A stretch of 64,000 bases of DNA. It comes from Amphiscolops sp. MND2022. Its lineage: Eukaryota. The DNA is taken from assembly GCA_964187785.1 (NCBI GenBank), contig OZ076409.1, forward strand, positions 56,918,001 to 56,982,000, read 5' to 3'. Positions 1 through 47,859 of the stretch are shown here, in pieces. Position numbers and translations under genes: made by a program. The notes under the pieces are model-generated. The model was not told where the DNA came from, did not search any database, and saw only the letters and a program-made list of their open reading frames with translations. Position 1 is the stretch's first letter, and each line of letters starts with the position of its first letter.

Positions 1-997
1 CTCTAACGAAAAGAAAGAGTCCAAATTCATAGAAATATCGTTCCTAGCGTCATTTAAATAATCATAATTTGGAAGTTAGTCATATGTTGCTCATGCTGAA
101 ATTCAAAATCAGGTATTTTTGTTCACGTCAGCGTCATCTCAGCGTCAATTTCCCGCGAAAAAGCAGTAAAACAGGGAAGCATTTCCGGTTTGACAGACTG
201 AAGTAATATCTACTTCCTGCTTGGGAGGAAGCGAAAGGACGCCGGGATGAAATGATATGATCATGTTTGATGACTAACACTAAATAAAGTTCAACGTGTC
301 TTAAAATTTGACGAAATGTCGACGCAAATTTGGGATCTTCGTTATTTTTTCATCAGTAAAACAGGAAGTGACTAATTGTTCGAGGAAAATTAGGGAATAT
401 AGTCGTGATCAAATGATGCTGGGAGGGTATAAATACAGTAAAATTCGATGATTAGGGGACTCAGTCTTTTCCAATTGTGAAAATCAGTTATTTCATAACT
501 TGCTCAATTTTCCAATACTTAATCTCAACTCTGTTGAAAATACTCAGAAAGTAAATTGAATTGCCAGAAATCAATTTCTCTCTACATCGAAATGTCGACT
601 ACCAGAAGCCAGAAAAGAAAGAACAATCAACAAGAAGTTGTTGAAAACGTAAGTGAAGGTTTTGTTTCGCCAGTCTTAGCGGAAAACTCTTGTTCTTTGA
701 TTCAAGATGTAGTTGTCGCAGGTCCGTCAAAACCTAAATCTCCTAGGGTAGAGAACAGTGTCTTGGAGAGTTTGACAGTCTCTTTAAAAGAGGAGATCAC
801 ATCTGAGATCAAAAGTCTTCTTATGGAATCCCAAAGAGAAATGTTGAAGCTCCTAAGATCTGAAACAGGAGAAAATGTAAGAAATAGCATAATAGACGAA
901 ACGGAGAATAAAACGAGGAGCTTCCATACTCCGACGAAAACAGTACGAATCAACTCTACATCAAATCACGACTCTGACACGTATGTAAGTCGTAACA
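1..997 (+). repeat. 5' LTR (visible 3' part)
   Basis: Aligns with 3917-4916 with scattered substitutions and small indels; similarity ends exactly at the CA at 996-997. Confidence 0.9.
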
Positions 998-2040: not shown

Positions 2041-2085
2041 TTACGTCGCGCCTGCGCTTTGGGGAAACACTAGACGCGAGGGCGT
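2031..2085 (+). promoter_or_regulatory. Putative -1 programmed ribosomal frameshift signal
   Basis: A AAA AAC (2031-2037) lies in the gag frame just before the stop. Stem TCGCGCCTG (2046-2054) pairs with TAGACGCGA (2071-2079). The -1 frame is open to TGA 2511-2513. Confidence 0.7.
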
Positions 2086-2468
2086 ATTCACCAGAAGACC
2101 CCCCTACCATATACACAACTGAGACAACAGCAGAGTGCACCGGTACTCCAACAGATGATTGGCTGAGACAACAAGCCGTCGCCTCCATAAAAAGACCACC
2201 CCCAGAAAAAGATCAGGAAGCAACATTCCTGCAAGATCAAGACTACAGAAGCGACAATCAACATCACACAAACCCACTCTCTCAGCCAACCATCAACACC
2301 AAAGAACTCTCTGTTGCAACGCAAATAGACCACAACGAAAACGCCCCCGAGGACAACGTTCCGTCACGAACGACTTGGACAAAAGAATACAGACGATCAC
2401 CATTACCCCGACAATCGCCTCACAACTCAGAGCCCCGGGCAGCGTCAATCTTCTTACGAGAGCGGCCC

Positions 2469-4916: not shown

Positions 4917-5420
4917 GCGTGGGAATGGCGTAAGTCGGCGCCCCATTTAATGATTAAACAGCGGAAAAACAAAGCGAACTTCAAAGCGTTAACTGTTTCT
5001 GAAAAATTCCTAATTCAACAGAGTGAAAAAAAAACGAGGAGGAAGTCTCTTTGGTCTTGAAAAATCTTCATTCTAACTTTCAAAAATATATTTTAAAGCT
5101 AAAAGAATGTCTTTATAAAAATTTTGGAAAATCTCAGTGTTAAAAATTGTGTCTGGTCTCAGAGAAGCCTTTTCCTCATTGAAAATGTTTAAAACCCTTT
5201 TGGTGAAATCAAAAAAGTTTCAAAAAAAGTCGCACAGTGCCAAAAATTAACACACATATTGATTTTAAATCACAAAAAATGTGTGTAAAATGGAAGAGAG
5301 AATCTCTTCAAACCATTTTAGCTTTATCACTTTTTGCATCGACCGGATTGAAAATAAATGGAAAAATAGAAAAACAAACAATAATTAGTCGCCTTTTATT
5401 TCATGAAGCGCCGCCGAAAC
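4917..5420. mobile_element. Non-autonomous Helentron-like (HINE/DINE-type) element, family A, degenerate
   Basis: AGTCGGCGCCC near 4933 and TAGTCGCC...AAGCGCCG near 5386-5413 match the ends of the 17101-17410 copy; the internal AAAAAGTCGCACAGTGCC motif is shared with related copies. Confidence 0.5.
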
Positions 5421-10131: not shown

Positions 10132-10329
10132 TGTAAAGGACTGATAAAAGGAGGGAAGAAGCACCTTTATTTTAAAAGCAAAGAATTTACCATGAACAAA
10201 ACTCAGTACCGTAAAAGTATGCTTTATACCATATCGAACTCAAAATTACTCATAAATGAATGTATTGTCTGAGATACCTTTGGGGCAGGTACTTCTGTGT
10301 CAGAATTGATTGTTACTATCTGCTCTTCA
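10132..10329 (-). repeat. 3' LTR (198 bp)
   Basis: Diverged direct repeat of 14988-15186; preceded on the - strand by polypurine tract GGAGGGGGAA (10330-10339). Confidence 0.9.
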
Positions 10330-13300
10330 TTCCCCCTCCACAGATTCATGAGAACCAGCAGTGTTCTCTTCCATATGTAGGATGACAATGTTGTGCATTT
10401 TTGGTTGTGTGTGTCCTCTGCCGGGTGATGCGGATGACCTTGGATGGCGTTGTGGTTCGTTTTCGAAACGAACCACTTTTGAATAAAAGTACTCCCTTCG
10501 GCCTATTTTTTCTACTCGCTTTGCTGTTTTGATCCGATCGGATCTACGTATAATCGGTTCTTCAAATTTCATAAAATTCTTTTTCTCCTTTCCATCTACC
10601 CCTAAGTTTTTATCACCTTTCCGTTTTGTTGGCCCAGATGGTGTACCGGTGCTGTCGCGAACACCTCTGCGCATAGTGCGCTCGGTACTGCATTCGATCG
10701 GGGATGTTGGCATCGGCGTGTTAGCGATTGTCAACGGTTCCGCGACTGTCACTGACTCTTCATAGCTGTCTCTCGGTGCATCTTCGGTAGTAGCGGTGTT
10801 TTTTGGTACATCTTTATCAGCGTGTGGGAGATCCTCCGTTGTTCCGACATGGTTGTCCACAAATGTGGTGTCCATCCGGTCATCGCTCTGACTCTCGTGA
10901 TGGCAGCATGGGAAAGTACTTCTCGTGCCCGCGGTTGATCCATTCTCAGCCATGATGCGTAGGTTGTGTCGCTGTAATTCCCATCGTTGAGCCGTCCACA
11001 TCAGCAGCATCTACTTGTGGGCTTCGTTGGTTCATCATGTTTCTTTGATGGCTGAAGCTTTAAAGGATTAGATGCTAGTTTTTTATGAATTACTCTTCCT
11101 TCCGCTGTAGTATTTGTATGATCGGTCTCCTTAATTGCAGTTAAGAATTTGTTCGTTTTAAATCGGCATTTCAGAGTCAAGTTTCGTTTCTTTCTCGCAG
11201 AACTTGTATGGTCTAAATTCTTGGCTTACAGAGCGGCCTCGCGTCTTCGAGTCGTTAAAAACCAGATAATCAGCAAATTCTTCGTCAGAATGGTTTACAT
11301 GGTGAATATCTGCAGTTCCGTGGGTTGAGCTAACATATATTTCGTCAAGATCTTTTTCCAATTGGATAGTAGGCATGACGGCTGGCCCATTAGGTTGGTG
11401 ATAGCCGTGCGCAGTTTCCGTCCTAGATGCATTTAGAATGGTGTCTTTTTCGGCGTAATATGCAGTGTTTGTCAAATCGTTTTAATTGCTAGTTGGACGC
11501 TTTCATCGAACGTTAACGCGTCTTTTAAAATATCTCTCGTTAGTGATTTAAGTGTTCGTATGGTTCTTCCGAACACTCCGGTGCCGGTATGTAAATTTGG
11601 CGTACATCGGATTCGTTCTAGATTTTTACCGTCACAGAATTCTTTGAATTCTTTGCTTTCAAAAAACACCTGTTGTCTGTGGCGTTCGTTATCTGAACAA
11701 AATTCAGTATAAAATTTGAAACAATCCGTGTATCTGTATTTTTACAAATGAGTAAATGGCTGCTGGCCATTTACTTTCTCCGTCAGAACTGTTGCTTTTC
11801 CAGGAATCGTGATTGTTTTGCTGGAATTTTTGCAGCGGTGTTGTTCCAATCAGCTCGCAGTATTATAGAATCTATTGTATATTGCTTTGTTCAGTCTTTC
11901 AATTTGTTTCCTGCCTCGCTGACTCGGCCGATATACCTGGAATCGTTCATTGTCCTTTCCTTTGCCGACTATACTTGTCCGGTGTGACTGAAGGATTCGA
12001 TTTCTTTCGGTTCTCAATCTATCAATTTCTGGGGAACGCCCCTGCTTTTTGAAGATAAGTTCCATGTCCATCCCGTTTATTCTGTCCATTTTAGAGATGG
12101 ACAACCGATTACTTGTTTGATTTGAAGTGATGCAGTTTTGTGGAGTGTTCGTTTCAATAGATTTTGTTTTGATTTTGTTCACACGTGTAATTACCGCGTT
12201 TTGATTGGTCGGCTTCTGGCGTCGGTAGTGATTGTCCGATATTCTGCGTAATACTCCCGTTCGTTCGGTTGAAATTAAACAAACCGTAGATTTGATTTAT
12301 TACGAACTCCTTTTCGGCATCGATTTCGTCGTGTTCGTTGTTTTCTCATTCCGTTTTGGTTACGTCATCGTACGCAATCGGGTGTCGACTAAGGTAATCC
12401 GTCTGCATAATATTCTTACCGGCGGTGTATTGGACATTTACGTCGAAATGGCCTAATCGATCTAACCAGCGAGTTAAATTTGGGCCGTATTACTTGTGTG
12501 CTCTATTGCGTTTATATAACGGTTGATGTGCTTGGTGATCGGTTAATAAATTCGCCTTTTTCCCGTAGACAAAACATCTAAAATGTTCAAATCCCCATAG
12601 TGCTCCCAACACTTCTAGTTCATTTTTGGCGTACCTTGTTTTCGCAATCCGCTAGAAAACTACTTGCAAATGCTATGGGTCTAAAATCCTTGCCTCCTTT
12701 TTGCCAAAGGGTTGTCCCTAGGCCCGTGGTACAAGCATCAGTTGCTATAAAATTATCTTTCTTTGGGTCAAAGTGTGCCGGACTAAGTGCTTCCGTGATT
12801 TCATTCTTTAGCTTTTCCAAATCATCGGTTATCTCCGGTGTCCACTCCCAATTTACGCCTTTCTTTAGTAGTCTTCTCGTTCTGTCAGACTTATTGGAAA
12901 GGTTGTTAATGATATTGGTTAAGTGTTGTTATGATCCCAGATGGGATTTCAAATCGTCGTGTTTTTGGGGGCTTGTAATTTTGTGATTGCTTCTGTTTTG
13001 TCTCTCACAGGTTTCACACCGAGCCATACTAATTTTCTTTTGAATAATTCTGTTTCCTTCTCGCTCGCTCGGTATTCAGCATCTTGTAGTTTCGATAAAA
13101 TTTCCCGTTATTCGCGTTCATGGTCTTCAATTGTCACATTCGTCACATAGATAATATCATGTAACCAGACCGGTGTTTTCAATTCCAATACTTGGTCGAT
13201 GTTTTCTTGAAATAAGGTTGGAATATCCGATAGCCCCTTAGAAACCCCTCTTGAATCGATAGTGTCCCGTGAAGTCGCCGCCAAATATTTAGAACACACT

Positions 13301-14960
13301 GTGTTTGGATGCTTCTTTGGATAGTTCTGCCTGACCATATGCTTAGTCTGGATCGATTTTTGACATCCATATTTCTTGCCGTATATAATTTTTGCCGTAA
13401 TTTTGCTGATCAGTTTTTCCATGTTCGGCATGGTTGCTTTTCATCTCATGCAAGCCTCGTTTAATTTTCGTGAGTCTAGAGCTATTTTAACCGATTTGTC
13501 TTTATTAAGGGTATCACGGCGGGGAAACAAAACAATTTTCAATCGTCTGGTCTGCTTTCTCGAGGTGTCCCTTCTCTATCAGTTTTTCCAGCTCTTGCCG
13601 TATGGTGTTTTGGAAATGGATAGATACGGGTCTTTCCTTTTATTCTATTGGTTTGGTTGTATTGTTTTTCAATTGGATGTCTGTCAAATCATTTATCGTG
13701 TGGTTGTTTCTGAGTAGATCTTCATATTCTCCAATTATTTTTCGCGTTTTTCGTCGTTGATCACATTTCTAATAATGTTGGTGTTTTTGCTACCTTGCAG
13801 ACCAATTTCCAGCTTGTCTAACCAATTTAGTCCCAAAATGGCCTGTGTGCATTTTGTGGTCAATTGGGTATCATTTGGACTAATTCTCGGCGGAACAATT
13901 GTGACTGGACAGCCTGTATCGATACTGAATTCTATTGGCTGTCCCTCGACCATTAGGATTGCTTTATAGAAGTCAATCCGGGTAACGCCGTTCGCGTACT
14001 GTATATGATCGAGTTCTTGCCATGGCTCCGAATTGCGGCCCGTTTCTGCTTCTTCTTGTATCCGGTTCACGGTCTTTGATCGGAATACTTTAGCAAAGTG
14101 CCCCCTTCTCTTGCATTTATTGAACTATGTTTTCCGTGCCGGGAATGAATGTTTCGACGTCCAATTTGATATTCCGCAAACATGGCAATTTCGAATATTT
14201 TCTTTCTTCTTGTCCGCTTCGTTCAGTCTCTTCTTCCGTATTGGTTTTGTGTAAGCAATCTCTTCTCCATCTGAGGAACTGTCTGAGGATGCTTCCCTCT
14301 GCTTTCTAATTTGAGATTTTTTGTCGTCGTACTTACGGTTTTAGTTGCCCATTTCGATAGTTTCCAGTACCAATGGTCGTGTCAGTGGTCCTCTAATGAA
14401 TTTGTCCAGTGCCTTCGTGTCGTCTATTGTGGCTGGAATTTATACGTGATTGTTTCTTCTGGTGTGATTCTGTTATATTCGCACTTTCTTTTGATATCCA
14501 CAAGGTTTTTCCAATATTCATCAAGTGTCTCGTTGTCTTGTTTGATTTTGAGGATTTGTCTCTGCCGTGGAATACATTTCTCGTGGGTAAGAATGTCTTC
14601 TTGAACAATTTTAAAAATTCTTGTAGGCTGATGTCCTTCAGTTTTTTTGTCCCATTTACCTCTTATTATCTCATGTTTTGCATTTGGACCCAATGCCCAA
14701 ATGACATCGCCTTTGTTGTGGTGGGTTATCTGTGCATCCAGAGAGTTGGTTCCAAGCTCTATCAATTCTTCTAGGTTTTTCTGGTATGTGAGATCAATGT
14801 TTTCTGAGATTTCTTCCCGCCACATTCTCGGGTTAGTTTTTGTCAGATCCGTCTTTCTATCCGAAAGAATCCGTATTTTGTAAATATTTCTCTCCATCCT
14901 TTCTACAATCGTGGCTTGATTCGGGGCTGTATGGTCAGTTGTGTTTGTAGCATCCATATT
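10330..14960 (-). pseudogene. pol: Fragmented gag-pol
   Basis: Short ORFs carry gag (14424-15056), protease-like FSIDTGCPVTIV (13735-14070), RT MPNMEKLISKIT (13108-13431), RNase H AHFDPKKDNFIATDACTTGLG...FRPIAFAS (12620-12820) and integrase FKEFC...TPNLHTGTG...RTIRTLKSL (11472-11669); many stops and frameshifts. Confidence 0.88.
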
Positions 14961-17967: not shown

Positions 17968-18912
17968 GGGAGGCGGAAATTTCGTCGACAGTAATTTCGT
18001 CGTCAGAAATTTCGTCGTAGAAAGTTTCGTCGTATTACCAAATCCAGAAATTTCGTCGTCAGACATGTCGTCGTCGGATATTTCGTCGTATTGATTAGAA
18101 TTACCAGCGTAACGAAAAGACATCATTTGAAGTATTCAATTATTTAATTATTAAAATGTGATCTTGAGAATAAGAACCAAAATTGAGTCAAAAAGTTAAT
18201 TGCATTCAATCAACTGATCAAGACGCTCATTGAGCAATGGTATATTTTCAGTTCTAACAGTGGAACGAGTTGCCTCTTCAGAGTCGAATTATTTAGAATC
18301 GAAAACTGCAAGTGAAAGTTCCAGGGTCGAATTATTTAGGATCGAATTTTACAGGGCACTGTAGCAATTGTATAATATTAATAAAAATTTCAATTCTTTC
18401 AATCCTAGCTAAAATGTCAAAATTCGATCCTATAAACTTTTGCACATTTTCGATCCTGTACAATTCGACTCTGTGCAGCAATCCCAGTGCAACTACTTAT
18501 CGGACCTTTACAATACAATTTAGGCTTGCTCCAGGGGTGAATTTTTGCTTTTTATCAGAAAATTGTTTTAAAATCCTGGTAATTTTTGCTTTAAGTGTCG
18601 AAACAACTCCGTGTTGGGGAGATAAGGAACAAGATAAATCTGGGGGGGGCTATTTTTTCAAAACCATAACTAAAAGTAGTCAATGATAGCAATAATTGCA
18701 CAATTATTGTTAATTATCAAGATAATTAACAAATCTTGATAATTACTAAGGCTCAATAATGAAACGATTCCTAAAAGATTAGAGAAAATGCGACGATTTA
18801 TAGATCGTAATCACCGACGACGAAATTTCTGACGACGAAATTTCTGACGACGAAATTTCCGACGACGAAATTTCTTGCGAGGAAGTTTCACACGACGAAA
18901 TCTCTGGTAATG
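17968..18912. mobile_element. Non-autonomous Mutator/Phantom- or Foldback-like DNA transposon
   Basis: 9-bp direct repeat GGAACTGCC at 17959-17967 and 18913-18921. Inverted arrays of an about 15-bp GAAATTTCGTCGTCA unit lie at about 17976-18090 and 18813-18903. Confidence 0.7.
18279..18473. mobile_element. Nested MITE-like inverted-repeat element
   Basis: CAGAGTCGAATT (18279-18290) and AATTCGACTCTG (18462-18473) are perfect inverted repeats, with internal GGATCGAA/TTCGATCC subrepeats. Confidence 0.55.
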
Positions 18913-34850: not shown

Positions 34851-36400
34851 TTTTAGTGCGGCTCAAAGTTGAGCCGTTTGAGCAGTGGAATCCTGGGCCA
34901 AGCTCTAAAACATATCAACCGCAAAGAGCGAAATAGGATGATCCCTATTTGGGCGGTCAGTGTAAAAACGGAATTTAGCGGGGAAAACAATTATAAAAAG
35001 AGCAACTATGAGCAGACTTCTCGCTGAAACAAGGGCTTTTGTTAATGTCAGAAACTCCAAACTCGGACTTTCCTGAATGAATAGACAAGACAGAAGCCCG
35101 CTTGTCACCCCGCTTGAATCTCAAAAGCCTCTGGTTTCATAGAAATACTCAGGGTAACTTTTAGAAAATTTTCACCTTCAGAAAAGTAAAAAAGACGGCC
35201 GACCTGCAGCCTGAAAAAGTTGGTTAAGGTGCTGCAAACAAAAAATGCTGAAAAGAAACAAATATTGGAACCATTAGGCTTCAAAATGTAACAAGAAGAA
35301 ACCGAGAGGGGACCTCTTGGTGGAATTACTATTTTTCAAAGAAAAAGTTGCACTGTGCTGAAAACATCCAAAGTTGCCCTTATGGGCTAAAAAGACTTTT
35401 TAGCTTTTTTCCCACCGGAAACGTTAAAAAACCAAAGCGAGAACCCTTGTGTGAAATTAAAAGTTACCAAAAAGTCGCATACTTCCGAAGATAACACCCA
35501 ATTTCCTTTTCAATCCAAATAAGCATGTCAAAATATGAATGGGTAGTCTGTTCAGTATGAGAAAATGCTGTAATCGAATTTTCCAGGCAGAATTCAACAA
35601 TTTTATTATTCTTCAAAAAGTCTGGAATAATCAAGTGAAGCATAATTAAAATGAGGCAGTAGGACCATGATCACGAAGTCGGTAGGTACTCTCGGTTTCG
35701 TCTGTCGAATATGGAATGAAAACAGATAAATCTGCACATTACAAATAACATGCGAATTCGGTAGATTAAAAACTTGGCCGGAAACTGACTAGAATCACCC
35801 ATAGTGTTTTCATATCACCATGCCGGGTGCGGATTTTACAGCATGCTCCTAATTCCTGAAAGCAAATACTCAAAATCCAATGTTTATCCGTTTCAAATCC
35901 CTGATTTTGTCAAGTGTCGGGAGGAATTTACCTCCTGTTGTTTTCAATTAAGTTGTTTACCGTGGGGGTTCATTAATAGAGCTTGGTCGAATTTTCGTAA
36001 GCACTAGTTATTTTATCAGATTATCTTGGTTCAATCGACCCATAAAACTGGACCAATCAAGGCTGAATTATGGAGTAAATGTCTTGGAAAAAAAGCTCCG
36101 TGAAAAATGCAAGCAAACGTCACGTGAACACACACGCACAAAAAAAACATGTCTTTCAGAAGTCACTTATTGTAGAAAATAATATATATAACAATACATA
36201 ATATATAATACCTTCATGCTAGTTTTGATAGTGATGTATTCTTGGTGTCTTAATTGAACATATTTACTTGAGGAAAACACTTTCTCTGTATACTTTTTCC
36301 TTATATAAAAGATGATGCGCTATAAAGAAAGGTACATAGAGAACCAAAACATCCACCTTTCAAAAACGAGTTTTTTAAATATTTATGAATCCATAATGTG

Positions 36401-36750
36401 TATAAGGATCTGTATATTCGAGTCGCCTTCGGCTAATAATACAGTCCGTTTGCAAAGAGTTTTTTTGAACGCAGTATTAAAACATTCAAAGACATCAGTG
36501 AATAAATCAAAACAACTTGCAAAAGATCAATGTTGTTTACAAATATAATTAAACAAATTAAAGTTTCGAGATAGCAAATTATTTGAATGATATTTGAAAA
36601 ATATATTTTACTATTTTCAGAAGTAGCAAATATTTGACGGTTTCGGGAATCGAACCGGTAACCTTCAAATTCCGAGTCCCATACTCTACCGACCGTGCTA
36701 CGGTCACTTAATTTTGTTTGTTTTAATTCAACCATATTTGCTTTGCAACA
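36401..36750 (-). repeat. 3' LTR of the BEL/Pao element
   Basis: Identical by eye to 45031-45380; reads TGTTGC...CTTATA on the - strand; preceded by the PPT-like GGGCCCGGAGGA (36751-36762). Confidence 0.97.
36635..36707 (-). ncRNA. tRNA-Lys-like sequence with Pol III A/B boxes inside the 3' LTR
   Basis: The - strand reads GTGACCGTAGCACGGTCGGTAGAGTATGGGACTCGGAATTTGAAGGTTACCGGTTCGATTCCCGAAACCGTCA. It parallels tRNA-Lys(CTT) TAGCTCAGTCGGTAGAGCATGGGACTCTTAAT...GGTTCGA, but the acceptor and T stems pair poorly. Confidence 0.7.
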
Positions 36751-36911
36751 TCCTCCGGGCCCAAGAAGGTGTGAATGCAAAAAACTGAAAAAAAAACTTT
36801 TTTACTATTTTTTTTCGGAAAACGGTTTACATGGAATTCTGATGTACATGTTACATTTTACTCATATTAGGCATGATTACAAGCAAGAACAAAAACAAAA
36901 AGGGTTATAAA

Positions 36912-39581
36912 CTAAGCGATATTGGGAGGGTCGGGGGACGGGAGAACGGGTGCGAGTTTGACGATGGGTCGAACTAGGTTTCCTGTTGCTGTTTTCAGTT
37001 CGGCAGAGCGGGCGATTGAGTCAGTTCCGTAGTTCAACTTAACCACTCGTGCAAGTGGGTAATGTCCTCGTGGACTCGTCGGCTCGACAATCCAGACGAG
37101 GTCTCCGGTGATGAGATCTCGTTCTGGTGGAGTCGACCACTTTGAGCGACGATTAAGTGAAGGAACGTACTCTCGTAACCAGCGTTCCCAGATAGCATCA
37201 GAGTATGCTTGAGCACGGACGTAACGCTTACGGTGGTCGATGTCGGCACGTTGGTGAGATGGCATTGTGGAACCCGCAGTTCCCAACAGGAAGTGATTTG
37301 GTGTCAGAGCATCCAAGTCTGTGGCATCCGAACTTACAGGTACAAGTGGGCGGGAATTGAGACTCTGCTCGACTAAACAAAACGTAGTTGTCAAAATCTC
37401 ATCTGTTAGTCGCCGGTTTCCAAGAATCGCGTAGAAGATGTGTTTAAAACTCCTTACAATACGTTCCCAGACACCTCCATGGTGGGGAGCGCTTGGAGGA
37501 TTAAACTTCCATTGGATCCGTTTTTTGACGAGCGTTTCCGACAAGGTTTGTTGGTTCCAAGCTGCTACGTTTTGTAACAATTCCTTTTCGCTGGCAACGA
37601 AATTTGTTCCATTGTCAGACCACAAGACAGATGGAGTGCCCCGGCGGGCAGCGAAGCGCTCTATTCCCATCACACAACTACTAGTGTCCATGGTAGGGAC
37701 AACTTCGAAGTGAACGGCTCTAGTAGTAAGACAGGTGAAAAGGAAACCCCATCGTTTCTCTGTTGACCTTTTAACAGAAACGTAGAAAGGTCCGAAGTAG
37801 TCGATGCCAGTATTAGTGAAAGGAGGTTCTCTGTAAGCTAGTCTTTCGCGGGGAAGATCTGCCATTATCGGATTGATTGTATTAGCTCGTCGTTTCCGGC
37901 ATGTAACACACTTCGAGACAACTGTTCGCAGGGATGCTCTAAGTTTGACGATAGCGAACTGTTGTTGCACTAGCGCCCTCAAATAGTCAATACCTTGATG
38001 ACAGTGTGTTTGATGGAGATGTTCTAAGAAAAGCCGGATAACAGGATGTCGGCTGTCGAGTAGAACTGGGTGTTTGGCATCAAAGTTGGACACTTCGAGT
38101 CGTTTCGTTCGACCGGTTGCTCGCAAGAGGCCTTGAGGCCCAATGAAGGGGGAAAATTGAAGGATTTTGGAAGTACTGTTGAGTGGAGATCCTTTCAACA
38201 GACTCGTCTTCTCTGTAGGAAAAGACTCATGTTGCACGAGGTAGAAAAGTCTACATTGAGCATTCTCTAGTTCTTGGGGATCAGTGACAGAGCCCGAAAT
38301 GGAACGGTATCCTTCGTTTTTCGGCAGTAAGCGCAAAGCGTAGGCAACAACGCGCAGGAGTTTCTCGTACGAGCTATACTTCTGCCACTCGAAAGTTGAT
38401 GCGATGCTAGCTACTGTTGCACTTAATGCAGTGTCAGTTTCGAAAGTAGTGTAATTGGTTTCATGAAGCTCTGTCGTTTTTGCTTTGAGTTTGAATTTCA
38501 CGTTTGTTGGTGGTACAAATGGCCAGTCGGGAGTTTTCAGAAACGAAGGTCCGGTGAGCCAAGGGCTGTCGCGAAGTGACTTGGCACAAATTCCGCGTGT
38601 CCCAACATCTGCCGGGTTATCACTTGACTTCACATAGTTCCATTCGTCTACCGTACTGAGTTCTAGGATTTCTGCTACACGGTTTGTAACAAAGACTGGC
38701 TGCTTTTCTAACGAGTTGAGCCAATGCAGGACCGTCGTGCTGTCAGTCCACATGAAAATCTTGTCAATCTTTAACGTGAGGGCATTTTGAATTTCTTTTC
38801 GAAGTCGTGCGGCGAGTAATGAGGCCTGTAACTCGAGCTTGGGAATCGTGAGGGCTTTCATAGGTGCCACTCTAGCTTTTCCGAAGACGAAAGCTAGTTC
38901 GGTACAGGTGCGGTTAGCAGCGGTTACCTTTCCTCGTAAAAAGGCGACGGCGCTGAAAACATCTTGTGAGCTATCACCAAACATGTGAAGCTCCATTGAT
39001 TCCACACGTCCTTCGAAGTAGCTCCTTGGTATTTCAATTTCGCCCAACATTGTTAACTCTTCACTCCATTCAATGAACTTGGTTACAATCTCATCTGGTA
39101 GGTCATCGTCCCATTGTTGACCACTTAGTCTCCAGATGTCTTTCAACAATAACCTCGCTTGAACGGTGTAGGGAGCCACGAGGCCAATTGGGTCGTACAC
39201 CGCTGAAACTAAGCTCAACACTACCCGTTGTGTTATCTTTTTCGTGGTGTCGGGACTTGTGCCTCGACTCACTACAAGGGTATCAGTTGAGTGATTCCAT
39301 TTGAGTCCCAAAACGTGGGAACACTCTTCAGCGATTGGTATTTCTTTTTCTTGATTCGATGTGAGGTCTGGTTCGAGCTTGGTTGGCAGTTGGCTCACGT
39401 TAGAAACGAATTTGGTTAGCTTGAACCCGCCTTTTGCAAGTAGCTTTACTAGGTCCTTCGCTTTGTTGCTGGCATCTTCCACGGTAGGACTTGATTCCAG
39501 GTAGTCGTCCATGTAGAAGCTTCGATGGACACTTTGAGCTGCTTGCGGAAAATCGCTTTGATTGTCGGTACCGGTGCGTTT
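36912..39581 (-). CDS. pol: Pol C-terminal part: RT palm/thumb, RNase H, integrase
   Basis: FYMDDYL; ELHMFGDSSQDVFSAVAFLR...KARVAPMKALTIPKLELQA; HQTHCH...CVTC; GIDYFGP, SDNGTNF and GGVWER; W..EY.P.L C-terminal domain. In frame with the upstream ORF across one TAG at 39582-39584. Confidence 0.95.
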   Translation of the reverse strand, partial: KRTGTDNQSDFPQAAQSVHRSFYMDDYLESSPTVEDASNKAKDLVKLLAKGGFKLTKFVSNVSQLPTKLEPDLTSNQEKEIPIAEECSHVLGLKWNHSTDTLVVSRGTSPDTTKKITQRVVLSLVSAVYDPIGLVAPYTVQARLLLKDIWRLSGQQWDDDLPDEIVTKFIEWSEELTMLGEIEIPRSYFEGRVESMELHMFGDSSQDVFSAVAFLRGKVTAANRTCTELAFVFGKARVAPMKALTIPKLELQASLLAARLRKEIQNALTLKIDKIFMWTDSTTVLHWLNSLEKQPVFVTNRVAEILELSTVDEWNYVKSSDNPADVGTRGICAKSLRDSPWLTGPSFLKTPDWPFVPPTNVKFKLKAKTTELHETNYTTFETDTALSATVASIASTFEWQKYSSYEKLLRVVAYALRLLPKNEGYRSISGSVTDPQELENAQCRLFYLVQHESFPTEKTSLLKGSPLNSTSKILQFSPFIGPQGLLRATGRTKRLEVSNFDAKHPVLLDSRHPVIRLFLEHLHQTHCHQGIDYLRALVQQQFAIVKLRASLRTVVSKCVTCRKRRANTINPIMADLPRERLAYREPPFTNTGIDYFGPFYVSVKRSTEKRWGFLFTCLTTRAVHFEVVPTMDTSSCVMGIERFAARRGTPSVLWSDNGTNFVASEKELLQNVAAWNQQTLSETLVKKRIQWKFNPPSAPHHGGVWERIVRSFKHIFYAILGNRRLTDEILTTTFCLVEQSLNSRPLVPVSSDATDLDALTPNHFLLGTAGSTMPSHQRADIDHRKRYVRAQAYSDAIWERWLREYVPSLNRRSKWSTPPERDLITGDLVWIVEPTSPRGHYPLARVVKLNYGTDSIARSAELKTATGNLVRPIVKLAPVLPSPDPPNIA

Positions 39582-41426
39582 CTACGCGTAGTTGGCGCAC
39601 GTGGGCGAGTCTTTGGAGCCAAAGATATGCCGGGTGTATTGGTATACAGCTATTTCGGAAGCTGGGTCTTCCCGCCACAGGAAACGAAGTGACGGTCGGT
39701 CGCGTGGAATAACTCCAACTTGGAGAAACATTCCTTCTATGTCGGCGGAGACAGCATACTTGAACTGTCGGAAACGAATTAGGATGTGGATTAAACTTTG
39801 TAGCAAATCCGGTCCAGTTAACAAGGCGTTGTTCAGGGATTTACTTTGAAACTTTGCTGCTCCGTTCAAAACTCTGCGGACTTTGCCAGGTTTATGTGGG
39901 TTGACAACTGGGTGGTGCGGCAGATACCACTCGCGAGGGTTGTCCACTTTGAAGCAGTCTGTTTTGTCGATTTTTTCAATATACCCTTTCTCTAAGTCAT
40001 CTTGGATTGTTTTACCGTAGTGTTGTTTCAACTCGGGGTCTTTGCTGAAGCGCCTTTCCAGTGATTTTAGCTGTACCAGGGCAGAAAAGTAGTTATTCGG
40101 CAAGCTACTTCCGTCTTCTGCCCACAACATTCCCACTTGGTACCGGCAACCATCGTGGTACGTTGTTTCGTCAAGTATTTTCGACGCCCTCGCGTCGGCA
40201 GCGGAGCGCGAATCTGCTTGTTTGTACGTTCCGTACGATTCCATATCGTACCAGCTACGTAGTTGGTCAACAAGTTCGGTATCCAATTGTTTGTCACAAG
40301 TAACAGCTTTAAAACATGTTGAATAGAAACCCGAGGTCGACGGTAGTGGCCCACTCAAAACCCAGCCCAATGGTAGACGGACGGCAACTGGAGTATTTTT
40401 GCGGTCGGAATCAAAATACTCCAGCGGGCGGATCGAGTGAAACACATCCTGACCAAGGATCATTTCCACATCAGCGTAACTGTACTTTTTCAAAGCGATT
40501 GGTTCGAGGTGTGGGTACTTTGTTTTCAAAAAATCGACGTCAATGAAGTCAGTTCCGACACTAAGGTCCTCCCTGACGTACGGTTTTACAACAAAGGGCG
40601 AGCAAGAGCCACCTGAATGAACGGGTGTCAACTTAAGCTCTACCATTTGTGTGTCAACAACTTGGTTAGAATTAATCCCGTGGACGGTGAGTTGGGTTGG
40701 TTTGCCATTAACATTCAACTTTTTTGCCAGATTCGCGGAGATCCAGGAATGGCTGCAGGCAGAATCACACAGCGCTAAAACTTTTTCCGACTTACTATGT
40801 GACTGAAGTTCGACTTCCGTTACTTGTAGTAATCCTTTGACATCTGTGACGGAAGGCATGCCTGAGCTTTCTTCTGGTTTCTCGCTGTTTATCGATGTGC
40901 CAATGCAACCAGATGTTTCGGGTTTTACTTTGCTGCTACTGACAGCATTCTTTGTGAAAATCCGCTCAGCTCCGTGCAAGAAGGTGTTGTGTGAGCTTTC
41001 ACATCCATCTTTGGTGCACTTGCGGGGCTGTGGACACTGTCGGAACGAGTGATTGGGTTGGAAGCACGAAAAACAAAGCTTGTTGTCCGCCACAATTCTT
41101 GCTCTTTCCGTGGGTGTCTTTTTTCTGAAAACTGGACATCTCCACAACGGATGTTTGTCTTTACAGGCGACACAGTTTGACAGTTGTTCCACTTTACTCT
41201 TCGAATTCGAACGTTGTTGGCTAGACGAGGCTGTCGAGGCAAAAACTTTGGAGACAGTTTTAGTCTTGGTTGCAGTGATGGTACTGTCTTCGGTTTTTGG
41301 CTTGAGGGACGCTGACTTCATGCGCTCGTGCGCTTCAGCCTTATCTTTTAGCCAGTCGTTGAAATCGATCAGTGTTGGCCTGTCCAATGTTCGCTTCACC
41401 GTGTGCATTGACCATGCTTCTTTCAT
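39582..41426 (-). CDS. pol: Gag C-terminus (three Cys/His knuckles), aspartic protease and RT N-terminus
   Basis: CVACKDKHPLWRC, CFSCFQPNHSFRQC, CTKDGCESSHNTFLH; protease ALCDSAC; WYLPHHPVVNPHKPGKVRRVLN, SLNNALLTGPDL and ADIEGMFLQV. Confidence 0.95.
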   Translation of the reverse strand: MKEAWSMHTVKRTLDRPTLIDFNDWLKDKAEAHERMKSASLKPKTEDSTITATKTKTVSKVFASTASSSQQRSNSKSKVEQLSNCVACKDKHPLWRCPVFRKKTPTERARIVADNKLCFSCFQPNHSFRQCPQPRKCTKDGCESSHNTFLHGAERIFTKNAVSSSKVKPETSGCIGTSINSEKPEESSGMPSVTDVKGLLQVTEVELQSHSKSEKVLALCDSACSHSWISANLAKKLNVNGKPTQLTVHGINSNQVVDTQMVELKLTPVHSGGSCSPFVVKPYVREDLSVGTDFIDVDFLKTKYPHLEPIALKKYSYADVEMILGQDVFHSIRPLEYFDSDRKNTPVAVRLPLGWVLSGPLPSTSGFYSTCFKAVTCDKQLDTELVDQLRSWYDMESYGTYKQADSRSAADARASKILDETTYHDGCRYQVGMLWAEDGSSLPNNYFSALVQLKSLERRFSKDPELKQHYGKTIQDDLEKGYIEKIDKTDCFKVDNPREWYLPHHPVVNPHKPGKVRRVLNGAAKFQSKSLNNALLTGPDLLQSLIHILIRFRQFKYAVSADIEGMFLQVGVIPRDRPSLRFLWREDPASEIAVYQYTRHIFGSKDSPTCANYA

Positions 41427-43291
41427 ATTCGGTGGAGCTTTTGCACCGCTTGTCCCAGCAGTGATGCACTGGATAGATCTTGAAGGTAATTCAAAGAGCG
41501 GAAGACTCCGACTAAAGAACAGATGGTCGCCGAGTAACTGATGATGTTCTCACTGTTGTGCATCTTTAGAGGTGGGAAGTTCGATAACTTGTCGAGGTAC
41601 GCAGTTACTACAGTCTGGGGCTGGCCGAATTTTCGCTCTAAAGCCTTTAACGCGTCTTTATACATTGCTCCACAGTAAGCGAATTCGGAAATAGCCGTCT
41701 TGGCTTTACCTGTTACGAGGGTCTTCAGGTATGTTAGCTTGACATCGTCTGTTAGTGGGGACGAATCGATAGCGCTTTTGAATTGGCTGAACCACTCGTG
41801 CCACTGTAGCGGATCGCCACTGTATTGCGCTAACTTCCACTCGGGCAGATGGTCTTTCTTCGTTGAAGCTAACAAAAGCGCAAGATCTTGAAGAGAAAAC
41901 CCAGTTGTACTTGGTTGCTGTATCAACGTGGTTCCTGCAGGCACAAAAGTTGGAGCGGTTGGACTCAAAGTCGTGGTTGGTTGCGTTGTGGTATATACAG
42001 TGGGGTTACTAAGAGTTGTCAGCGGAACATAATACACAGCTCCCCCACGCGTAACGGGTATTGATGGTACGCTGCTGACCGGTGTGATAGCTACAGGAAT
42101 GGTAGACACACTTGCGGGAGGTGTCTGGGGTGAAGCTGTTGTAACAATTGGTGTCGGATTAATGGTCGGGTTAGGGAATGTCCATGCGGATAAGTTCGGT
42201 AGGAGGTGGTTCACCGGCATTGTGAACGTTGGCATCCTTGGCGGTACCAATGGCGGCTGCGGGACGTGTGAGAAAGTACTGGTTGCCTGGAGAATAGGCA
42301 ACTGTTGTGAAATGGCCGGTGTTGATGGTCCGGGGACTGGCACGGTAGGTTCCGTAGGTGTAAGTGATGTTACTGCCTGTGCTACAGCATTAGGACCCAC
42401 GGTTGGCACCGGGACAACTGTTGTTGGGACACCAACTGCTGTTGGCGCTTGGTTTGTACCGTCCGGTGTCATGGTAGTTGGATCAGCATTACCCAGTGGC
42501 GGAAGCGAAGATGTCACTGCGGTAGTAGTAGCAATCGACGTTGCAATGCCAATGGGAACCACTGCTTGCGGTTGGGTATTGTTGATAGTAACAACCGGGG
42601 AGTTGTTGATCCATTCGTTTATCCTTTGATTCTCGTTGGCTGCGCTTGTACCACTCAGTCGTGACAAAGTTTCGTGCAAATCCTCGTTGGCTTCGGAAAG
42701 ATCATCTTGGAGTTCCAACTCCACAAGGTGAGCTGCTGCCAGTCGTTTCCGGTTTTCTTCTTGTAGCTGCTCTAATTCGAGCTCTTGCTTCTGCTTAGCT
42801 AGTCGTAAAGCGGCTTCGTTCTGCCTTTCTACCTCTTCTCGCTTATGCTGAGCAATAAGCAATTCGCGTTGTCTTTGACTGGAGGACTTAGATACCTTGC
42901 TACTAGAAGCTTTACTGGATTTCACCTTTTTTGAAGTCCTAGCTGAAGATTGTGATGACCGTTCAACGTTAGGGCACTGGTCTATATACTCCCTTGCACT
43001 CCTGAGAATTTCATCGTTTTGAACAGTGGTGTCATTCAGCCACTTTTCCAAATCGGCTTTTACAGATGCAGGGTCACTTGTTTTCTTAGCAAGTTCGAGG
43101 AGCTGTTCATTCTTGGAGAACGCTTTGGTCATGGCTTCTTCGCAGTAAGTGACCAACCGTTCGATGCGGACGCGTCTCTCGGCATTGTTAACTGCTTCTG
43201 TCACTTCCCTTTGAATTTTGTTTAGGTCGGCCTCGGCTTTCGCACGACTGTCAAACAACTTCTGTACTTTCTCGTGAACGGGGTCAGACAT
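41423..43291 (-). CDS. gag: BEL-type Gag N-terminal part (coiled coil, P/T/V-rich linker, capsid-like domain)
   Basis: LPEWKLAQYSGDPLQWHEWFSQFKSAI...KLTYLKTLVTGKAK...LERKFG is the BEL gag motif. A 1-nt deletion near 41435 (KLPPNMK becomes KLHRI*) separates it from the next ORF. Confidence 0.93.
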   Translation of the reverse strand: MSDPVHEKVQKLFDSRAKAEADLNKIQREVTEAVNNAERRVRIERLVTYCEEAMTKAFSKNEQLLELAKKTSDPASVKADLEKWLNDTTVQNDEILRSAREYIDQCPNVERSSQSSARTSKKVKSSKASSSKVSKSSSQRQRELLIAQHKREEVERQNEAALRLAKQKQELELEQLQEENRKRLAAAHLVELELQDDLSEANEDLHETLSRLSGTSAANENQRINEWINNSPVVTINNTQPQAVVPIGIATSIATTTAVTSSLPPLGNADPTTMTPDGTNQAPTAVGVPTTVVPVPTVGPNAVAQAVTSLTPTEPTVPVPGPSTPAISQQLPILQATSTFSHVPQPPLVPPRMPTFTMPVNHLLPNLSAWTFPNPTINPTPIVTTASPQTPPASVSTIPVAITPVSSVPSIPVTRGGAVYYVPLTTLSNPTVYTTTQPTTTLSPTAPTFVPAGTTLIQQPSTTGFSLQDLALLLASTKKDHLPEWKLAQYSGDPLQWHEWFSQFKSAIDSSPLTDDVKLTYLKTLVTGKAKTAISEFAYCGAMYKDALKALERKFGQPQTVVTAYLDKLSNFPPLKMHNSENIISYSATICSLVGVFRSLNYLQDLSSASLLGQAVQKLHRI

Positions 43292-43720
43292 GATAATGTC
43301 GAAAGTGGAAATCGGTAACCGTTTGTACTTTTCCCGACGTCAACCAAACAATCAAGTTTGGACGCAGTTCAAGGAAATGTTTAGTGGTGAGGAATACGGG
43401 GTCAATCAGTGACAGCACGGTGTTTATACAGTGCTTAGAGAAAGAAATTGGCGGTTTTTTTTGGTTTTAAGTTAAAATTAGTCACAGACTACGAGGACGG
43501 AACACGATAAACTCAAAGTCGCGTCGACTCAACGCGGTAACAGTTGACGGTGGTGCGGGTGAGGGACGAAACGACTTTCAGAGTATCAACCAGTCAGTCA
43601 AGGCTGGACACAACTCTGAAAGAAGGAGGAAGAGCTGAAGAAACTTCAACCGATCAGTGAAGTTCGGACACTGTCTCGACAGCTGGAACCAGCGGGGGGG
43701 GGGGGGGTTGTCAACTGAGA

Positions 43721-44329
43721 CTAAAAGGAGGCAGCGGCTCTCTTAGCAGCGTTCCGGGCACGCTTACTTGGCCGTTTGGGTCGGCTTTTATCAGTTATTG
43801 AGGAGAGTTCGTTCTCATTACGGAGCAGAAAGTACAAATTTTTCAGTTCAAGCTCAGGGCTCTGATGCAGTGCTTTAAATTTTTTCAAAAGGTCGGCATC
43901 CTTCTGTTTTTTCAGGGAAATAAAGTCTTTGACTATATCGAATACTTTGATATCAAGATCGGTTTCCAATGTTTTCAATGATTCAAAGATCTCGGGGGTA
44001 CGAAAGCGGTGGCAATACACCAGAGCACTGAGTTTTTTCTGAATGTGTTTCAAAATTTCAATTAATTCTGACACTGATAATGCACAAAAGTTATTACTAT
44101 GATGTCGGGAAATGCTGTTATTTAGGACATCGTGCCAAATGACAATGTTGGTTTTGTCTTTCAGATCTTTAGAAAGCAGATTTTGAACAATTTTTCGGGG
44201 ATTTTTTGTGTGTGGATTCAAACTTAGGCCCGGGATAGAGAAAATTTTTTCTTTATATTGATCTCTTTTTTCGGGGGGTAACGTTTCCAAAGCATGATGT
44301 AGAGAACTTGCGGCTAGAATGAACACCAT
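43721..44329 (-). CDS. Extra ORF (202 aa from the ATG), SGNH/GDSL hydrolase-like, upstream of gag
   Basis: Intact sense-strand ORF inside the element. Motif order VFILAASSL / FSIPGLSL / IVIWHDVLNNS / KALHQS parallels SGNH blocks I, II, III and V. It ends in a basic tail. The fold call is by eye only. Confidence 0.65.
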   Translation of the reverse strand: MVFILAASSLHHALETLPPEKRDQYKEKIFSIPGLSLNPHTKNPRKIVQNLLSKDLKDKTNIVIWHDVLNNSISRHHSNNFCALSVSELIEILKHIQKKLSALVYCHRFRTPEIFESLKTLETDLDIKVFDIVKDFISLKKQKDADLLKKFKALHQSPELELKNLYFLLRNENELSSITDKSRPKRPSKRARNAAKRAAASF

Positions 44330-44611
44330 GAACTTTTTCGCAATAATTACTTTCCCAGTCAAGAACTAAATTTCGATGATAGAAACTTATATGTTTTTCC
44401 AAATTAGACACCTTTTCCCAGTCTTTGAAAGAATTGATTTCACATTTTGGGTCAAACAAGATGTTGGAGTTTTCCTTAATTTGCTATCTCGAAGAATTAA
44501 ACAAAATTTAAAGAGTTTTCAAAGTTTATCAGTTTGCTTTCTCTATTACTCACGACCATGGGTCTTTCCGGCGAATTGGGGGGTCTTCGGTGGGTTGAGG
44601 GAGGCGGTGGT

Positions 44612-44940
44612 ACGCCCTCGTCTGTGTGGGTGGCGGGGGGGGACACCCTCGTGTGTGTGGGTGGCGGGGGGAACACCCTCGTCTGTGTGTGGGTGGCGGG
44701 GGGAAACACCCTCGTCTGTGTGTGGGTGGGGGGAAACACCCTCGTCTGTGTGTGGGTGGCGGGGGGAAACACCCTCGTGTGTGTGTGGGTGGCGGGGGAA
44801 ACACCCTCGTCTGTGTGTTGGTTGCGGGAAAAACACCCTCGTCACTGGGTGTTGGTTGCGGGAAAAACACCCTCGTCACTGGGTGTGGGTGGCCGGGGAA
44901 ACACCCTCGTGCGGGTGGGAACTGTACCCTCGTCTGGTGG
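44612..44940. repeat. GC-rich minisatellite, about 11 units of 30-34 bp, in the BEL leader
   Basis: Core ACACCCTCGT followed by variable (GT)n-GGGTGGC-Gn-An tracts. Confidence 0.95.
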
Positions 44941-45010
44941 ACACATCTAGTTTGTAGGGCGATAATTGTTTCGAAATAGTTCGAAGAATATTTGGGTGAC
45001 AGTTTCTATT

Positions 45011-45030
45011 GAATCCTGGTCTGGACACCA
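45011..45030 (-). promoter_or_regulatory. Primer-binding site TGGTGTCCAGACCAGGATTC
   Basis: Abuts the 5' LTR; its complement GAATCCTGGTCTGGACACCA has the form of a tRNA T-arm/acceptor/CCA end. The isoacceptor is not assigned. Confidence 0.9.
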
Positions 45031-45380
45031 TATAAGGATCTGTATATTCGAGTCGCCTTCGGCTAATAATACAGTCCGTTTGCAAAGAGTTTTTTTGAAC
45101 GCAGTATTAAAACATTCAAAGACATCAGTGAATAAATCAAAACAACTTGCAAAAGATCAATGTTGTTTACAAATATAATTAAACAAATTAAAGTTTCGAG
45201 ATAGCAAATTATTTGAATGATATTTGAAAAATATATTTTACTATTTTCAGAAGTAGCAAATATTTGACGGTTTCGGGAATCGAACCGGTAACCTTCAAAT
45301 TCCGAGTCCCATACTCTACCGACCGTGCTACGGTCACTTAATTTTGTTTGTTTTAATTCAACCATATTTGCTTTGCAACA
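45031..45380 (-). repeat. 5' LTR of the BEL/Pao element
   Basis: Identical by eye to 36401-36750. Confidence 0.97.
45265..45337 (-). ncRNA. tRNA-Lys-like sequence with Pol III A/B boxes inside the 5' LTR
   Basis: Same sequence as 36635-36707. Confidence 0.7.
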
Positions 45381-47859
45381 ATGTGTGAGTATAACTATTA
45401 CTGCTTATATCTAAACACTCACTAATATGGTAGGTATAAAATTTCCCACATTGTTTTTCTAATGTTCATCTCGATTTTATCGCTTCTCAAAACGCAGAAC
45501 TGACCCAGCAAACAGTGCAGAAAATTGGATTTTCCAGTTAAAAAACATGTAGGAACATACATAATTCTTACGTTTAATTAGTTTTGCGAAATTGTAGTTC
45601 AAATGCTTCTAAATTAATAATTCAACTTGGTTAGTTACTGTACCAATGAACTACAACGAAAGTTGTGTAGTTCTTCATCACAACAACTGATTATCGAATA
45701 ACAATTTCAAACAAAAGACATAATTCCGGTTTGTGATTTCAACTTGAATAAAAACAGAAAATAACTATTCCACAGAGAATTCCAAAGAATTTCAAATACA
45801 TTCACACAATAATATCATTTAGGTTATCACCAGTCGGATTCCTAAGAAGAATGCTGCCGCAAGAACTCTCATAATGACCTGCCTGAAACTTGAATGAAAT
45901 TTGGAGTTGTGACGTCACTGTCTAATTCAAAATTGAATGTTGTCTGAGTCAATCAAAGAAGTAGAACTGACTTCGAAAAGATAAACAAAATTGTACACCA
46001 AAAAATTTCTGAAAATGATTATATTTGAAAAAAATCTGTTGTTACCATGGTTTCGATGGATGGTACACAGTTCATAATACAGGCTGTTATTCATCACAGT
46101 TTTGGTATAAAAACATTCTGTGTACCAACTATACTTGTCCCTAAATCCAGACAAAACATTAATAAGAACGCAAAACTCGGCAGATGCTTTTGAGTATACT
46201 TATAAGTGCTTATACATATACAAGAATAAGTATACATATAATTTATAGTGCGTGTCACAAACTTTGATCACAAAGGGTTTAGTTTTACTCCTTTTTTCAT
46301 GATCACAAATCTAGGTATTTTCAAATTTTATCCGAAATCAACTGTCTATAGATAAACTATAGTTTATCTAATACAGTATGGTATGCTTTTCATAACACCA
46401 AGCGCGGTTAAATGAAGGATTTGATGTAATTGTGAACTTTATTGCGAAATGTAACGCATGCGCAAAAACTATTCCGGTACTAAATTCTCAAAGAATACTT
46501 GAGCTTTCTTATACGTTGTCTGAGAAACAGCTTGAAAAATATTCCAACCTTCCGCTAAAAAAACACTAAATATATTATTATAAAACATAATGAGTTTCCA
46601 ATGTGTGTTCAATAATTAAACTATCATTGAGAAAACACCCCTGGTCATCAACATCAAAACCGACTCTATTTTTTCATATCTTATAGCAGTGTAAATTTTA
46701 TCATAGTCAGAAAAATGCAACAAAAAATTTCATTTCCCGCATTTTTTCATCCTTAACCAATATTGCTAGATGAGACGCAAGGCGTAGTTGCTCTTTGATC
46801 TGAGAATTGAATATAACCCACAGTGTACATCAAATGAATCACACGGCTAAACTGAAGACTAATGCTTGAAAGCGCCGAAATTCTACCATTCAAGTACCCG
46901 AAATTTTGGTAATTGAAATTGTGCCATGAAACAGATCTTTTCAGTCCATATACCATGGATGGCTACAATTTTCTAAATCAATGCTTAGCAATAAACTCAG
47001 CTAATATATCTTTCGCACTCTCACGTGCTGTCATTTCCACTTGAGAAACAAATTTTCTAAATTGTCTAGACAAGTTCAAAACTCTGGTTCTTGGAAATAT
47101 CTATAGGAAGCCGATATCTAAGCCAAGAAAATAACTCGCAATTGAATTCCTCAAACTTTTCGGACCAGATATTATCTTGGTTTTGTCGAGTATAATCCCG
47201 ATCGCTTCACGTATCAGAGGAACTAGTTTATCATGTGTCACAGAATTGATTGGCCATTTTTAGATGTAACAACTCATCTCTCTGCGAAATTGCATAATTT
47301 TCAGCATTCTAGCCGATTGACTCTTTATCTACAGAGCATTTTTCCGTATCTTTCTCTCAGTAACGCCAACCTTAAGCTTGTAGGCGGAGCTGCCATCATC
47401 TATCAAGAAAAGATTCCAAAAACTATCTTGAGTCCCAAGGACAGAAACTATAGAAGCTACTATATCAGCATAGGTTCAACTGAAGAACTTTTAGAGCCTA
47501 GTACCCAAGTATCAGCCTCAACATGCTGAAAAACATCCTACGAATATGTAAGTACAAGGAGGCCCACAACTAGTCTAATGTATCGACTGTTCTAAATGAA
47601 AAATGGACATTTGTGTTTAGGCATTAGAGTCAATTCTTGTACCAAAAAAACTTAGTTGAATAACAAACAGTTTAATGCGCCAATCAATCTACAACTGTCG
47701 CAAATTAGGGTATATCGAGAGGTTTTTTATAAGTTGTAAAAATAAGTGCGGTTTGCAATGACTTTCCAAATGGGTAGTATTAAAAGGGTTCCGAAAGTTT
47801 ACGCACACCTACTAATTTGTAAGTTTCTGGACTTTTAGCAATAAGAACTGTAACGTCCA

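Follow-up and report, generated by a model that had tools for sequence, protein, structure and literature searches.

SGNH-type esterase genes have been described in retroelements before. Bdelloid rotifer Vesta LTR elements carry an SGNH accessory ORF, and this GDSL/SGNH ORF is common to the Athena/Terminon Penelope-like elements; as described there, Vesta is non-BEL and low in copy number, and its gene is ORF3, located after gag and pol (PMC5408684). The ZfL2-1-type esterase of CR1/L2/RTEX LINEs and Penelope-like elements is described as an ORF1p domain that follows a coiled coil and has the complete Ser-Asp-His triad as well as the motifs GDS and HVGTND (PMC3905857, PMC4120745). Ngaro YR retrotransposons, which belong to another order of elements, are reported to have a stand-alone SGNH ORF of putative function at their 3' end, after the tyrosine recombinase (PMC9210276). 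For BEL/Pao elements (Belpaoviridae, Semotivirus), the ICTV profile gives gag, pol and env only, with tRNA-Arg or Gly primers (PMC8742986), and the words 'esterase' and 'SGNH' have 0 occurrences in the main text of PMC3118150. In searches that covered open-access papers, we found no report of an SGNH gene in BEL/Pao elements or ahead of gag. The gene described here, ORF0, is almost certainly a real, selected accessory gene with an SGNH fold, and it occupies this position.

The BEL/Pao element and its pre-gag ORF

The window, that is the whole stretch of 64,000 nucleotides that was analysed, contains an 8980-bp BEL/Pao element on the minus strand (36401-45380). Its 5' LTR (45031..45380, minus strand) and 3' LTR (36401..36750, minus strand) are 350 bp each and 100% identical, with TG...TA termini, the 3' terminus being TA and not CA, and they are flanked by the 5-bp target-site duplication ATGTG (36396..36400 on the plus strand, other copy at 45381-45385). 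These sizes lie within the BEL/Pao ranges (LTRs of 0.2-1.2 kb, elements of 4.2-10 kb, a target-site duplication); the purine run before the 3' LTR is 6 nt, where the BEL/Pao polypurine tract is ~10 nt. Along the minus strand, the 5' LTR is followed by an 18-nt PBS (45013..45030, minus strand) that is complementary to the 3' end of host tRNA-His and matches host tRNA-His genes, a minisatellite in the 5' leader (44615..44910, period ~32, 9.2 copies), ORF0 (43721..44329, minus strand), a spacer of 429 nt (43292..43720, minus strand) and gag, which starts at 43291. As the preliminary description had it, ORF0 is a clean frame of 202 aa between the PBS and minisatellite and gag, inside identical LTRs; it runs from an ATG at 44329 to a TAG at 43721. 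The gag-pol of the window copy, all on the minus strand, is in three pieces: gag with DUF1759 (41423..43291), ended by a frameshift near 41425; the rest of gag, the protease and the first part of RT (39582..41426), ended by an in-frame stop near 39582; and the rest of RT, the PF05380 domain, the integrase and DUF5641 (36912..39581). Since gag-pol is broken by a frameshift and a stop, this recent copy is either non-autonomous or mis-assembled; a single gag-pol ORF of >2000 aa is present in 16 of 61 family loci. The earlier assignment to BEL/Pao was borne out by Pfam matches in the window gag-pol (PF05380, E 2.7e-42; PF18701, 6.8e-21; PF03564, 2.3e-14). Like the elements of the ICTV profile, this one has LTRs, a PBS, a length of 9 kb, the order gag-PR-RT-RH-INT and the domain set PF05380, DUF1759 and DUF5641 (PMC8742986), but it differs from them by a gene ahead of gag and by a tRNA-His primer. 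Elsewhere in the window, other LTR-element fragments lie at 1-4933 and 10327-14957, one of them with a gag that matches PF03732/PF03564 at 592-1692, and a 15-bp repeat forms inverted arrays ~800 bp apart at 17974-18910, possibly DNA transposon ends.

The inferred transcript has three short upstream ORFs in its leader, and its first long ORF is ORF0. Because copies of ORF0 contain 3-11 ATGs, leaky scanning past it to gag seems unlikely, and reinitiation, internal entry or a shorter RNA would be needed. The spacer, which is without ATG, contains three copies of a conserved ~26-nt motif that is found, in 2-4 copies, in 55/55 clade-a spacers and forms predicted RNA hairpins with a 5x5 internal loop. 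Two of these are at 43642..43675 and 43579..43618 (both minus strand), the second with both sides changed in 8/12 pairs. Overall, both partners vary in 11 of the 20 pairs, a count reached by 0/500 shuffles (12 sequences, the structure being drawn from the same alignment). A check of clade-b, LINE and Gypsy carriers did not reveal the motifs, which therefore track the BEL clade, not ORF0. Rfam gave only a weak opposite-strand snoRNA match on the spacer, far below threshold. The hairpins may be a packaging or translation signal.

Predicted fold and residues of the ORF0 protein

The ORF0 protein contains ILAASSL, SIPG, WHDVLNN and ALHQS and ends in the basic C-terminal tail KSRPKRPSKRARNAAKR (residues 181-202), as previously noted. 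It has a pI of 9.8 and a net charge of +13, and a transmembrane stretch is absent. A profile search with ORF0 gave 790 cluster representatives at E<=0.001, and 89 near-full-length homologues, reaching down to ~30% identity, were aligned; their last 30 residues contain a median of 11 K+R. The AlphaFold2 model obtained with this alignment reached a pLDDT of 96.6 and a pTM of 0.89, and a model built on a shallower alignment gave the same fold class. By structure alignment (VIA; 48,161 chains), the model matched SGNH hydrolases over residues 1-177, namely the acetyl xylan esterase 7ddy at Z 11.4 (rmsd 3.8, 159 residues), followed by OatA 6vjp (Z 11.3) and 3p94 (Z 11.2), and 41 of the 48,161 chains scored Z>=8. 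Foldseek matched the model to the GDSL lipase 3p94 with an E of 7.8e-4. Nearly all of the fold matches listed are titled GDSL/SGNH esterases or acyltransferases, so the SGNH-like fold suggested by the preliminary description is the one predicted. At the level of sequence, the window ORF0 gave no match to PF00657 or PF13472, and neither family was on the list of 25 obtained for sets of 112 and 89 homologues; PDB sequence profiles gave a best E of 0.043, and the deep ORF0 profile matched no PDB chain at E<=10. As no Pfam or PDB sequence match was obtained, ORF0 looks like an unnamed SGNH family. A lead comes from Atlas neighbours at score 0.90, which bear PF00657 / PF13472 on 21-30% of their members. 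A TPR_ZFYVE26 identity was rejected: 81 of 112 close copies matched this family weakly, short of the cut-off, and the predicted fold contradicts it.

The Ser, Gly, Asn and His proposed earlier as SGNH residues are kept across the homologues (S8 in 82/89, G34 in 82/89, N71 in 81/89 and H155 in 85/89), with all four jointly present in 69/89. They are retained in all four carrier groups, G34 being replaced by Ser in 8/10 BEL clade-b rows. The GDS and DxxH motifs are altered, as also proposed. S8 follows the strand at residues 3-6 in the block I context (A/G)ASS, not GDS, and the block-V Asp (position 152) is present in 0/89 homologues, with any D/E at 151-153 in 13/89. After strand 3, the context is WHDxxNN without the block III Gly, N70 being found in 73/89. 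Further highly conserved polar or aromatic positions are W65, H66, D67, Y105, R108, S138 and E161. By predicted fold and the four residues S8, G34, N71 and H155, ORF0 is placed in the SGNH superfamily; the missing Asp sets it apart from the canonical triad class but leaves it within the superfamily. Among SGNH enzymes, the acid is reported to be Asp in 23/30 structures and a main-chain oxygen in several enzymes (PMC10792757), and since enzymes with a main-chain acid exist, loss of the Asp is no proof of a dead enzyme.

Copies, carriers and exchange of ORF0

A genome search with ORF0 gave 3518 first-look candidates; the 150 that were scored are 72-100% identical, and ~125 of them are stop-free by hand count. 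Among the 30 best loci, 28 have gag within 1.5 kb. A further 60 loci of 10 kb were sampled over 60-82% ORF0 identity, and BEL gag and/or pol followed ORF0 in 60/60, with a flanking LTR pair in 52/60. The ORF0 frame is open in 60/61 loci and each of the five other frames in 0/61, a count biased upward by the choice of loci by ORF0 similarity, mostly as stop-free matches; this choice leaves dN/dS unbiased. Selection was measured by NG86 on 59 copies (one truncated copy and one with a shifted tail were dropped), giving 1711 pairs of which 617 were saturated. The median dN/dS of ORF0 was 0.19, 0.24, 0.14, 0.13 and 0.11 over five dS bins from 0.02 to 2, near that of N-terminal gag (0.07-0.20) and higher than those of RT (0.04-0.16) and integrase (0.02-0.12). 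Differences at codon positions 1/2/3 numbered 1748/941/4103. With diverged copies at 0.11-0.24, neutral evolution was not seen; purifying selection maintains ORF0 as a conserved accessory gene.

To look at BEL elements independently of ORF0, we used PF05380 as the only criterion: it gave 6212 candidates, 150 were scored, and from these 40 loci were chosen, with long open frames favoured; their pol is only ~30% identical to that of the window. Ahead of gag, four had an ORF0 homologue (36-37%), one an ORF0 fragment, seven a second SGNH-like type and six an antisense JmjC-like ORF, and no pre-gag ORF was seen in 23 of the 40, many of which have no visible 5' LTR. Some BEL lineages at least are without such an ORF, so ORF0 is dispensable for BEL elements. 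We also read 49 contexts of distant ORF0 homologues (15 of one 20-locus set, then 20 and 14). In 18 of these, the element is a LINE whose first ORF is ORF0, followed by a coiled-coil-like ORF1 and an APE-RT ORF2 (class assigned by Pfam on six of the 18 loci); in 13, ORF0 comes first in members of a Gypsy-type LTR family with protease, RT, PF17917/PF17919 RNase H, integrase and ~160-bp LTRs. Further BEL families carry it in 15, and three were assigned to no class. In all carriers examined, ORF0 is separate, ORF1 or gag starting past its stop. Uncorrected pN/pS was 0.41-0.42 in each of the clade-b/further BEL, LINE and Gypsy groups, synonymous sites being saturated in two of them; the Gypsy-type value (0.42, 25 pairs) is a weaker signal of selection. 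The preliminary description had spoken of a captured accessory gene. The conserved accessory gene stands, but a one-off capture does not, ORF0 being a gene family common to two BEL clades, LINEs and Gypsy-type elements. Three loci (L185, L186, L187) contain ORF0 homologues 46-48% identical to the Gypsy-borne one, in contexts that we assigned to neither BEL nor Gypsy nor the LINE family, with a distant RT match downstream in two. In two metagenome scans for other hosts, ORF0 was confirmed in 0/38 and 0/171 stretches; 141 of the 149 listed among the 790 cluster representatives are <85% identical to the sampled host loci.

The history of the gene was read from two trees. In the unrooted ORF0 tree (53 rows thinned from 98), four groups were found, namely the window clade, BEL clade b, LINE and Gypsy-type, with LINE and BEL clade b joined at 94/87 support. 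A single BEL origin of ORF0 was not rejected (p-AU 0.42, 33 of 53 rows); for this reason, and because the tree is unrooted, a LINE-to-BEL direction of transfer was set aside. For BEL pol, a tree of 36 rows (100 before thinning, and without L122) rejects a single clade of ORF0 carriers (p-AU 0.00096); at least 3 changes are needed on the starred branches, and the JmjC-like carriers are nested among those with ORF0. From these trees, it appears that ORF0 passed between element classes at least 2 times and was repeatedly gained or replaced within BEL. Swaps are visible even between close subfamilies. Recombinants were seen that combine the ORF0 of one subfamily with a gag-pol near that of the window (L040, L047, L048, L065; also L016, L019, L026); in the first four, ORF0 is 76-79% identical to the window, versus 86-98% for most gag/pol stretches. 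Six loci (L010, L030, L035, L045, L070, L080) have internal deletions in which ORF0 is kept and much of gag or pol is gone. A shared primer tRNA was rejected as the exchange route, a tRNA-His PBS being found in 13/13 Gypsy-type, only 13/66 clade-a and 0/13 clade-b loci. Genome-wide, 445 matches to the tRNA-His 3' end were counted, with a long tandem array of ~200-bp spacing (G000:C10, from about 40068746).

The place ahead of gag has other occupants. In other BEL families, antisense ORFs of 274 and 243 aa lie there inside the LTRs (L099:2614-3435 and L120:2480-3208, both minus strand; also L100, L102, L108 and L111). The first passes the JmjC cut-off (PF02373, 25 bits versus 24), and the second has no JmjC match, its likeness being judged by eye; our literature search found no report of JmjC in LTR elements. 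In another BEL clade, a second SGNH-like ORF of ~200 aa lies pre-gag (L101:3418-4005, plus strand; L104, L106, L110, L124, L125, L127), with the motifs xDS, PG, GGN and DxxH and 783 first-look candidates in the genome. Kinship between this type and ORF0 was not detectable (hhalign probability 0.6%). A 201-aa GDSL-like ORF (PF13472, E 5.6e-5, below the cut-off) was found in each 1270-bp LTR of a BEL family that forms the sister group of the window element's clade (L131:919-1521 and 8843-9445; L132). A 189-aa haem peroxidase ORF (PF00141, E 5.8e-24) lies near a BEL element but outside the detected LTR pair (L110:7466-8032, plus strand).

Possible functions and comparison with known systems

The explanation that we prefer, with a probability of roughly 45%, is modelled on the esterase of the LINE ZfL2-1, which has a low turnover and binds liposomes and anionic lipids (PMC3905857): ORF0 would be a slow serine esterase with an affinity for acidic lipids and would anchor the particle of the element to membranes. 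Lying in front of the other genes of its BEL/Pao, Gypsy-type and LINE carriers, ORF0 would be translated alone as the first cistron, and gag-pol would then be reached by one of the three routes given above, perhaps with the help of the spacer hairpins. The predicted protein would likely work as a slow SGNH-type serine esterase in which Ser8 and His155 form a dyad, a backbone carbonyl or another side chain takes the role of the acid, and Gly34 and Asn70/71 form the oxyanion hole. It would bind acidic membrane lipids in a matrix-like role, the basic tail would tether the RNA-protein particle of the element to membranes, and the gene would move between elements as a 5' module via recombination. 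Judged by its conserved residues, ORF0 is probably catalytically active: strict Ser and His together with the extra polar residues make an active site more likely than an inactive binding module, and the lack of a block-V Asp (0/89) and the (A/G)ASS of block I count against the esterase reading. The deep profile found no sequence similarity to ZfL2-1 (PDB, E<=10) and its structure 4c1b is not among the listed fold matches, so the lipid analogy is one of predicted fold. Likewise, ORF0 is a separate protein, unlike the ZfL2-1 ORF1p, and the link to the particle is therefore assumed.

A rather unlikely alternative is that the enzyme serves in counter-defence, acting on a hypothetical host target such as an acylated protein, a glycan or a signalling lipid, possibly in the nucleus, and is traded among classes for this reason. 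This would suit carriers as different as BEL, Gypsy-type and LINE elements, which have no common structural protein, and a gene that stands alone, no longer fused form having been found among 8000 candidates (a weak test). The invariant W65-H66-D67, Y105, R108, S138 and E161 suggest a specific substrate, and the tail presumably resembles a nuclear localisation signal. The JmjC-like ORF in the same slot of sister BEL lineages, which fall between ORF0 carriers in the pol tree, points the same way, but these ORFs are antisense and their function is perhaps unrelated, and the ZfL2-1 esterase is reported to be without histone-peptide deacetylase activity (PMC3905857). Quite unlikely, in our view, is a broader joint reading: host retroelements would have a swappable 5' accessory slot, comparable to the accessory genes of viruses, in which an anti-host deacylase of an undescribed Asp-less SGNH family is traded among BEL, Gypsy and LINE elements and is replaced in sister lineages by JmjC-like and other SGNH ORFs. 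Its target would be a defence protein, a chromatin mark or a signalling lipid. If this were true, there would be one host defence that all three element classes must beat.

We are equally doubtful that ORF0 is a catalytically inactive SGNH scaffold which binds RNA, for example the spacer hairpins, or lipid in the manner of the OSK domain of Drosophila Oskar. The missing triad Asp, the basic tail, the covarying hairpins that adjoin ORF0 and the SGNH fold of OSK itself (5a4a, Z 8.4, rmsd 3.8, 148 aligned) would fit this explanation, but OSK is described as being without the triad (PMC10792757), whereas ORF0 keeps Ser in 82/89 and His in 85/89 homologues at ~30% identity, and the clade-b, LINE and Gypsy carriers that were checked did not show the hairpin motifs. 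Finally, it is highly improbable that ORF0 is a chance frame or neutral passenger that persists solely through the youth of its copies: LTR pairs are 95-100% identical in most loci, so many copies are recent, and the intactness counts are biased by the choice of loci, but a dN/dS of ~0.11 at dS 1-2 (363 pairs) refutes it, ORF0 DNA is 68-79% identical between subfamilies versus 48-62% for the leader, and the motifs persist across three element classes.

Why transposons keep SGNH esterases has been a question since 2003, and ORF0 makes it directly testable, as its protein is small, has a single domain and a confident model, and comes in many natural variants. The usual picture of BEL/Pao elements, gag-pol plus env in some cases, is changed by an enzyme-like gene that is under selection, lies ahead of gag and has thousands of candidate copies. 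Like the Vesta gene, ORF0 is an SGNH accessory gene found in several classes and patchy on the pol tree (PMC5408684). In contrast to it, ORF0 lies before gag, in BEL, Gypsy-type and LINE elements, in thousands of candidate copies and without the Asp, and its dN/dS is 0.11-0.24, whereas the intragenomic evolution of Vesta ORF3 is described as consistent with neutrality (PMC5408684). With ORF0 at the 5' end of BEL, Gypsy-type and LINE elements in the same genome, the gene sharing known from rotifers is extended to three classes, with clear selection. With Ngaro, ORF0 has in common that its SGNH ORF stands alone (PMC9210276). It resembles the ZfL2-1 type in SGNH fold, 5' position and basic surface, and its IPG resembles the block II FPG of ZfL2-1 (PMC3905857, PMC4120745), but ORF0 is stand-alone, lies in LINEs before a separate coiled-coil ORF1, and has (A/G)ASS, WHDxxNN and no Asp. 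ORF0 is outside both the ZfL2-1 ORF1 type and the Pfam GDSL families. While shared enzymatic ORFs are known, the ORF0 family, its position ahead of gag, its BEL carriers and its spread over three element classes appear to be new.
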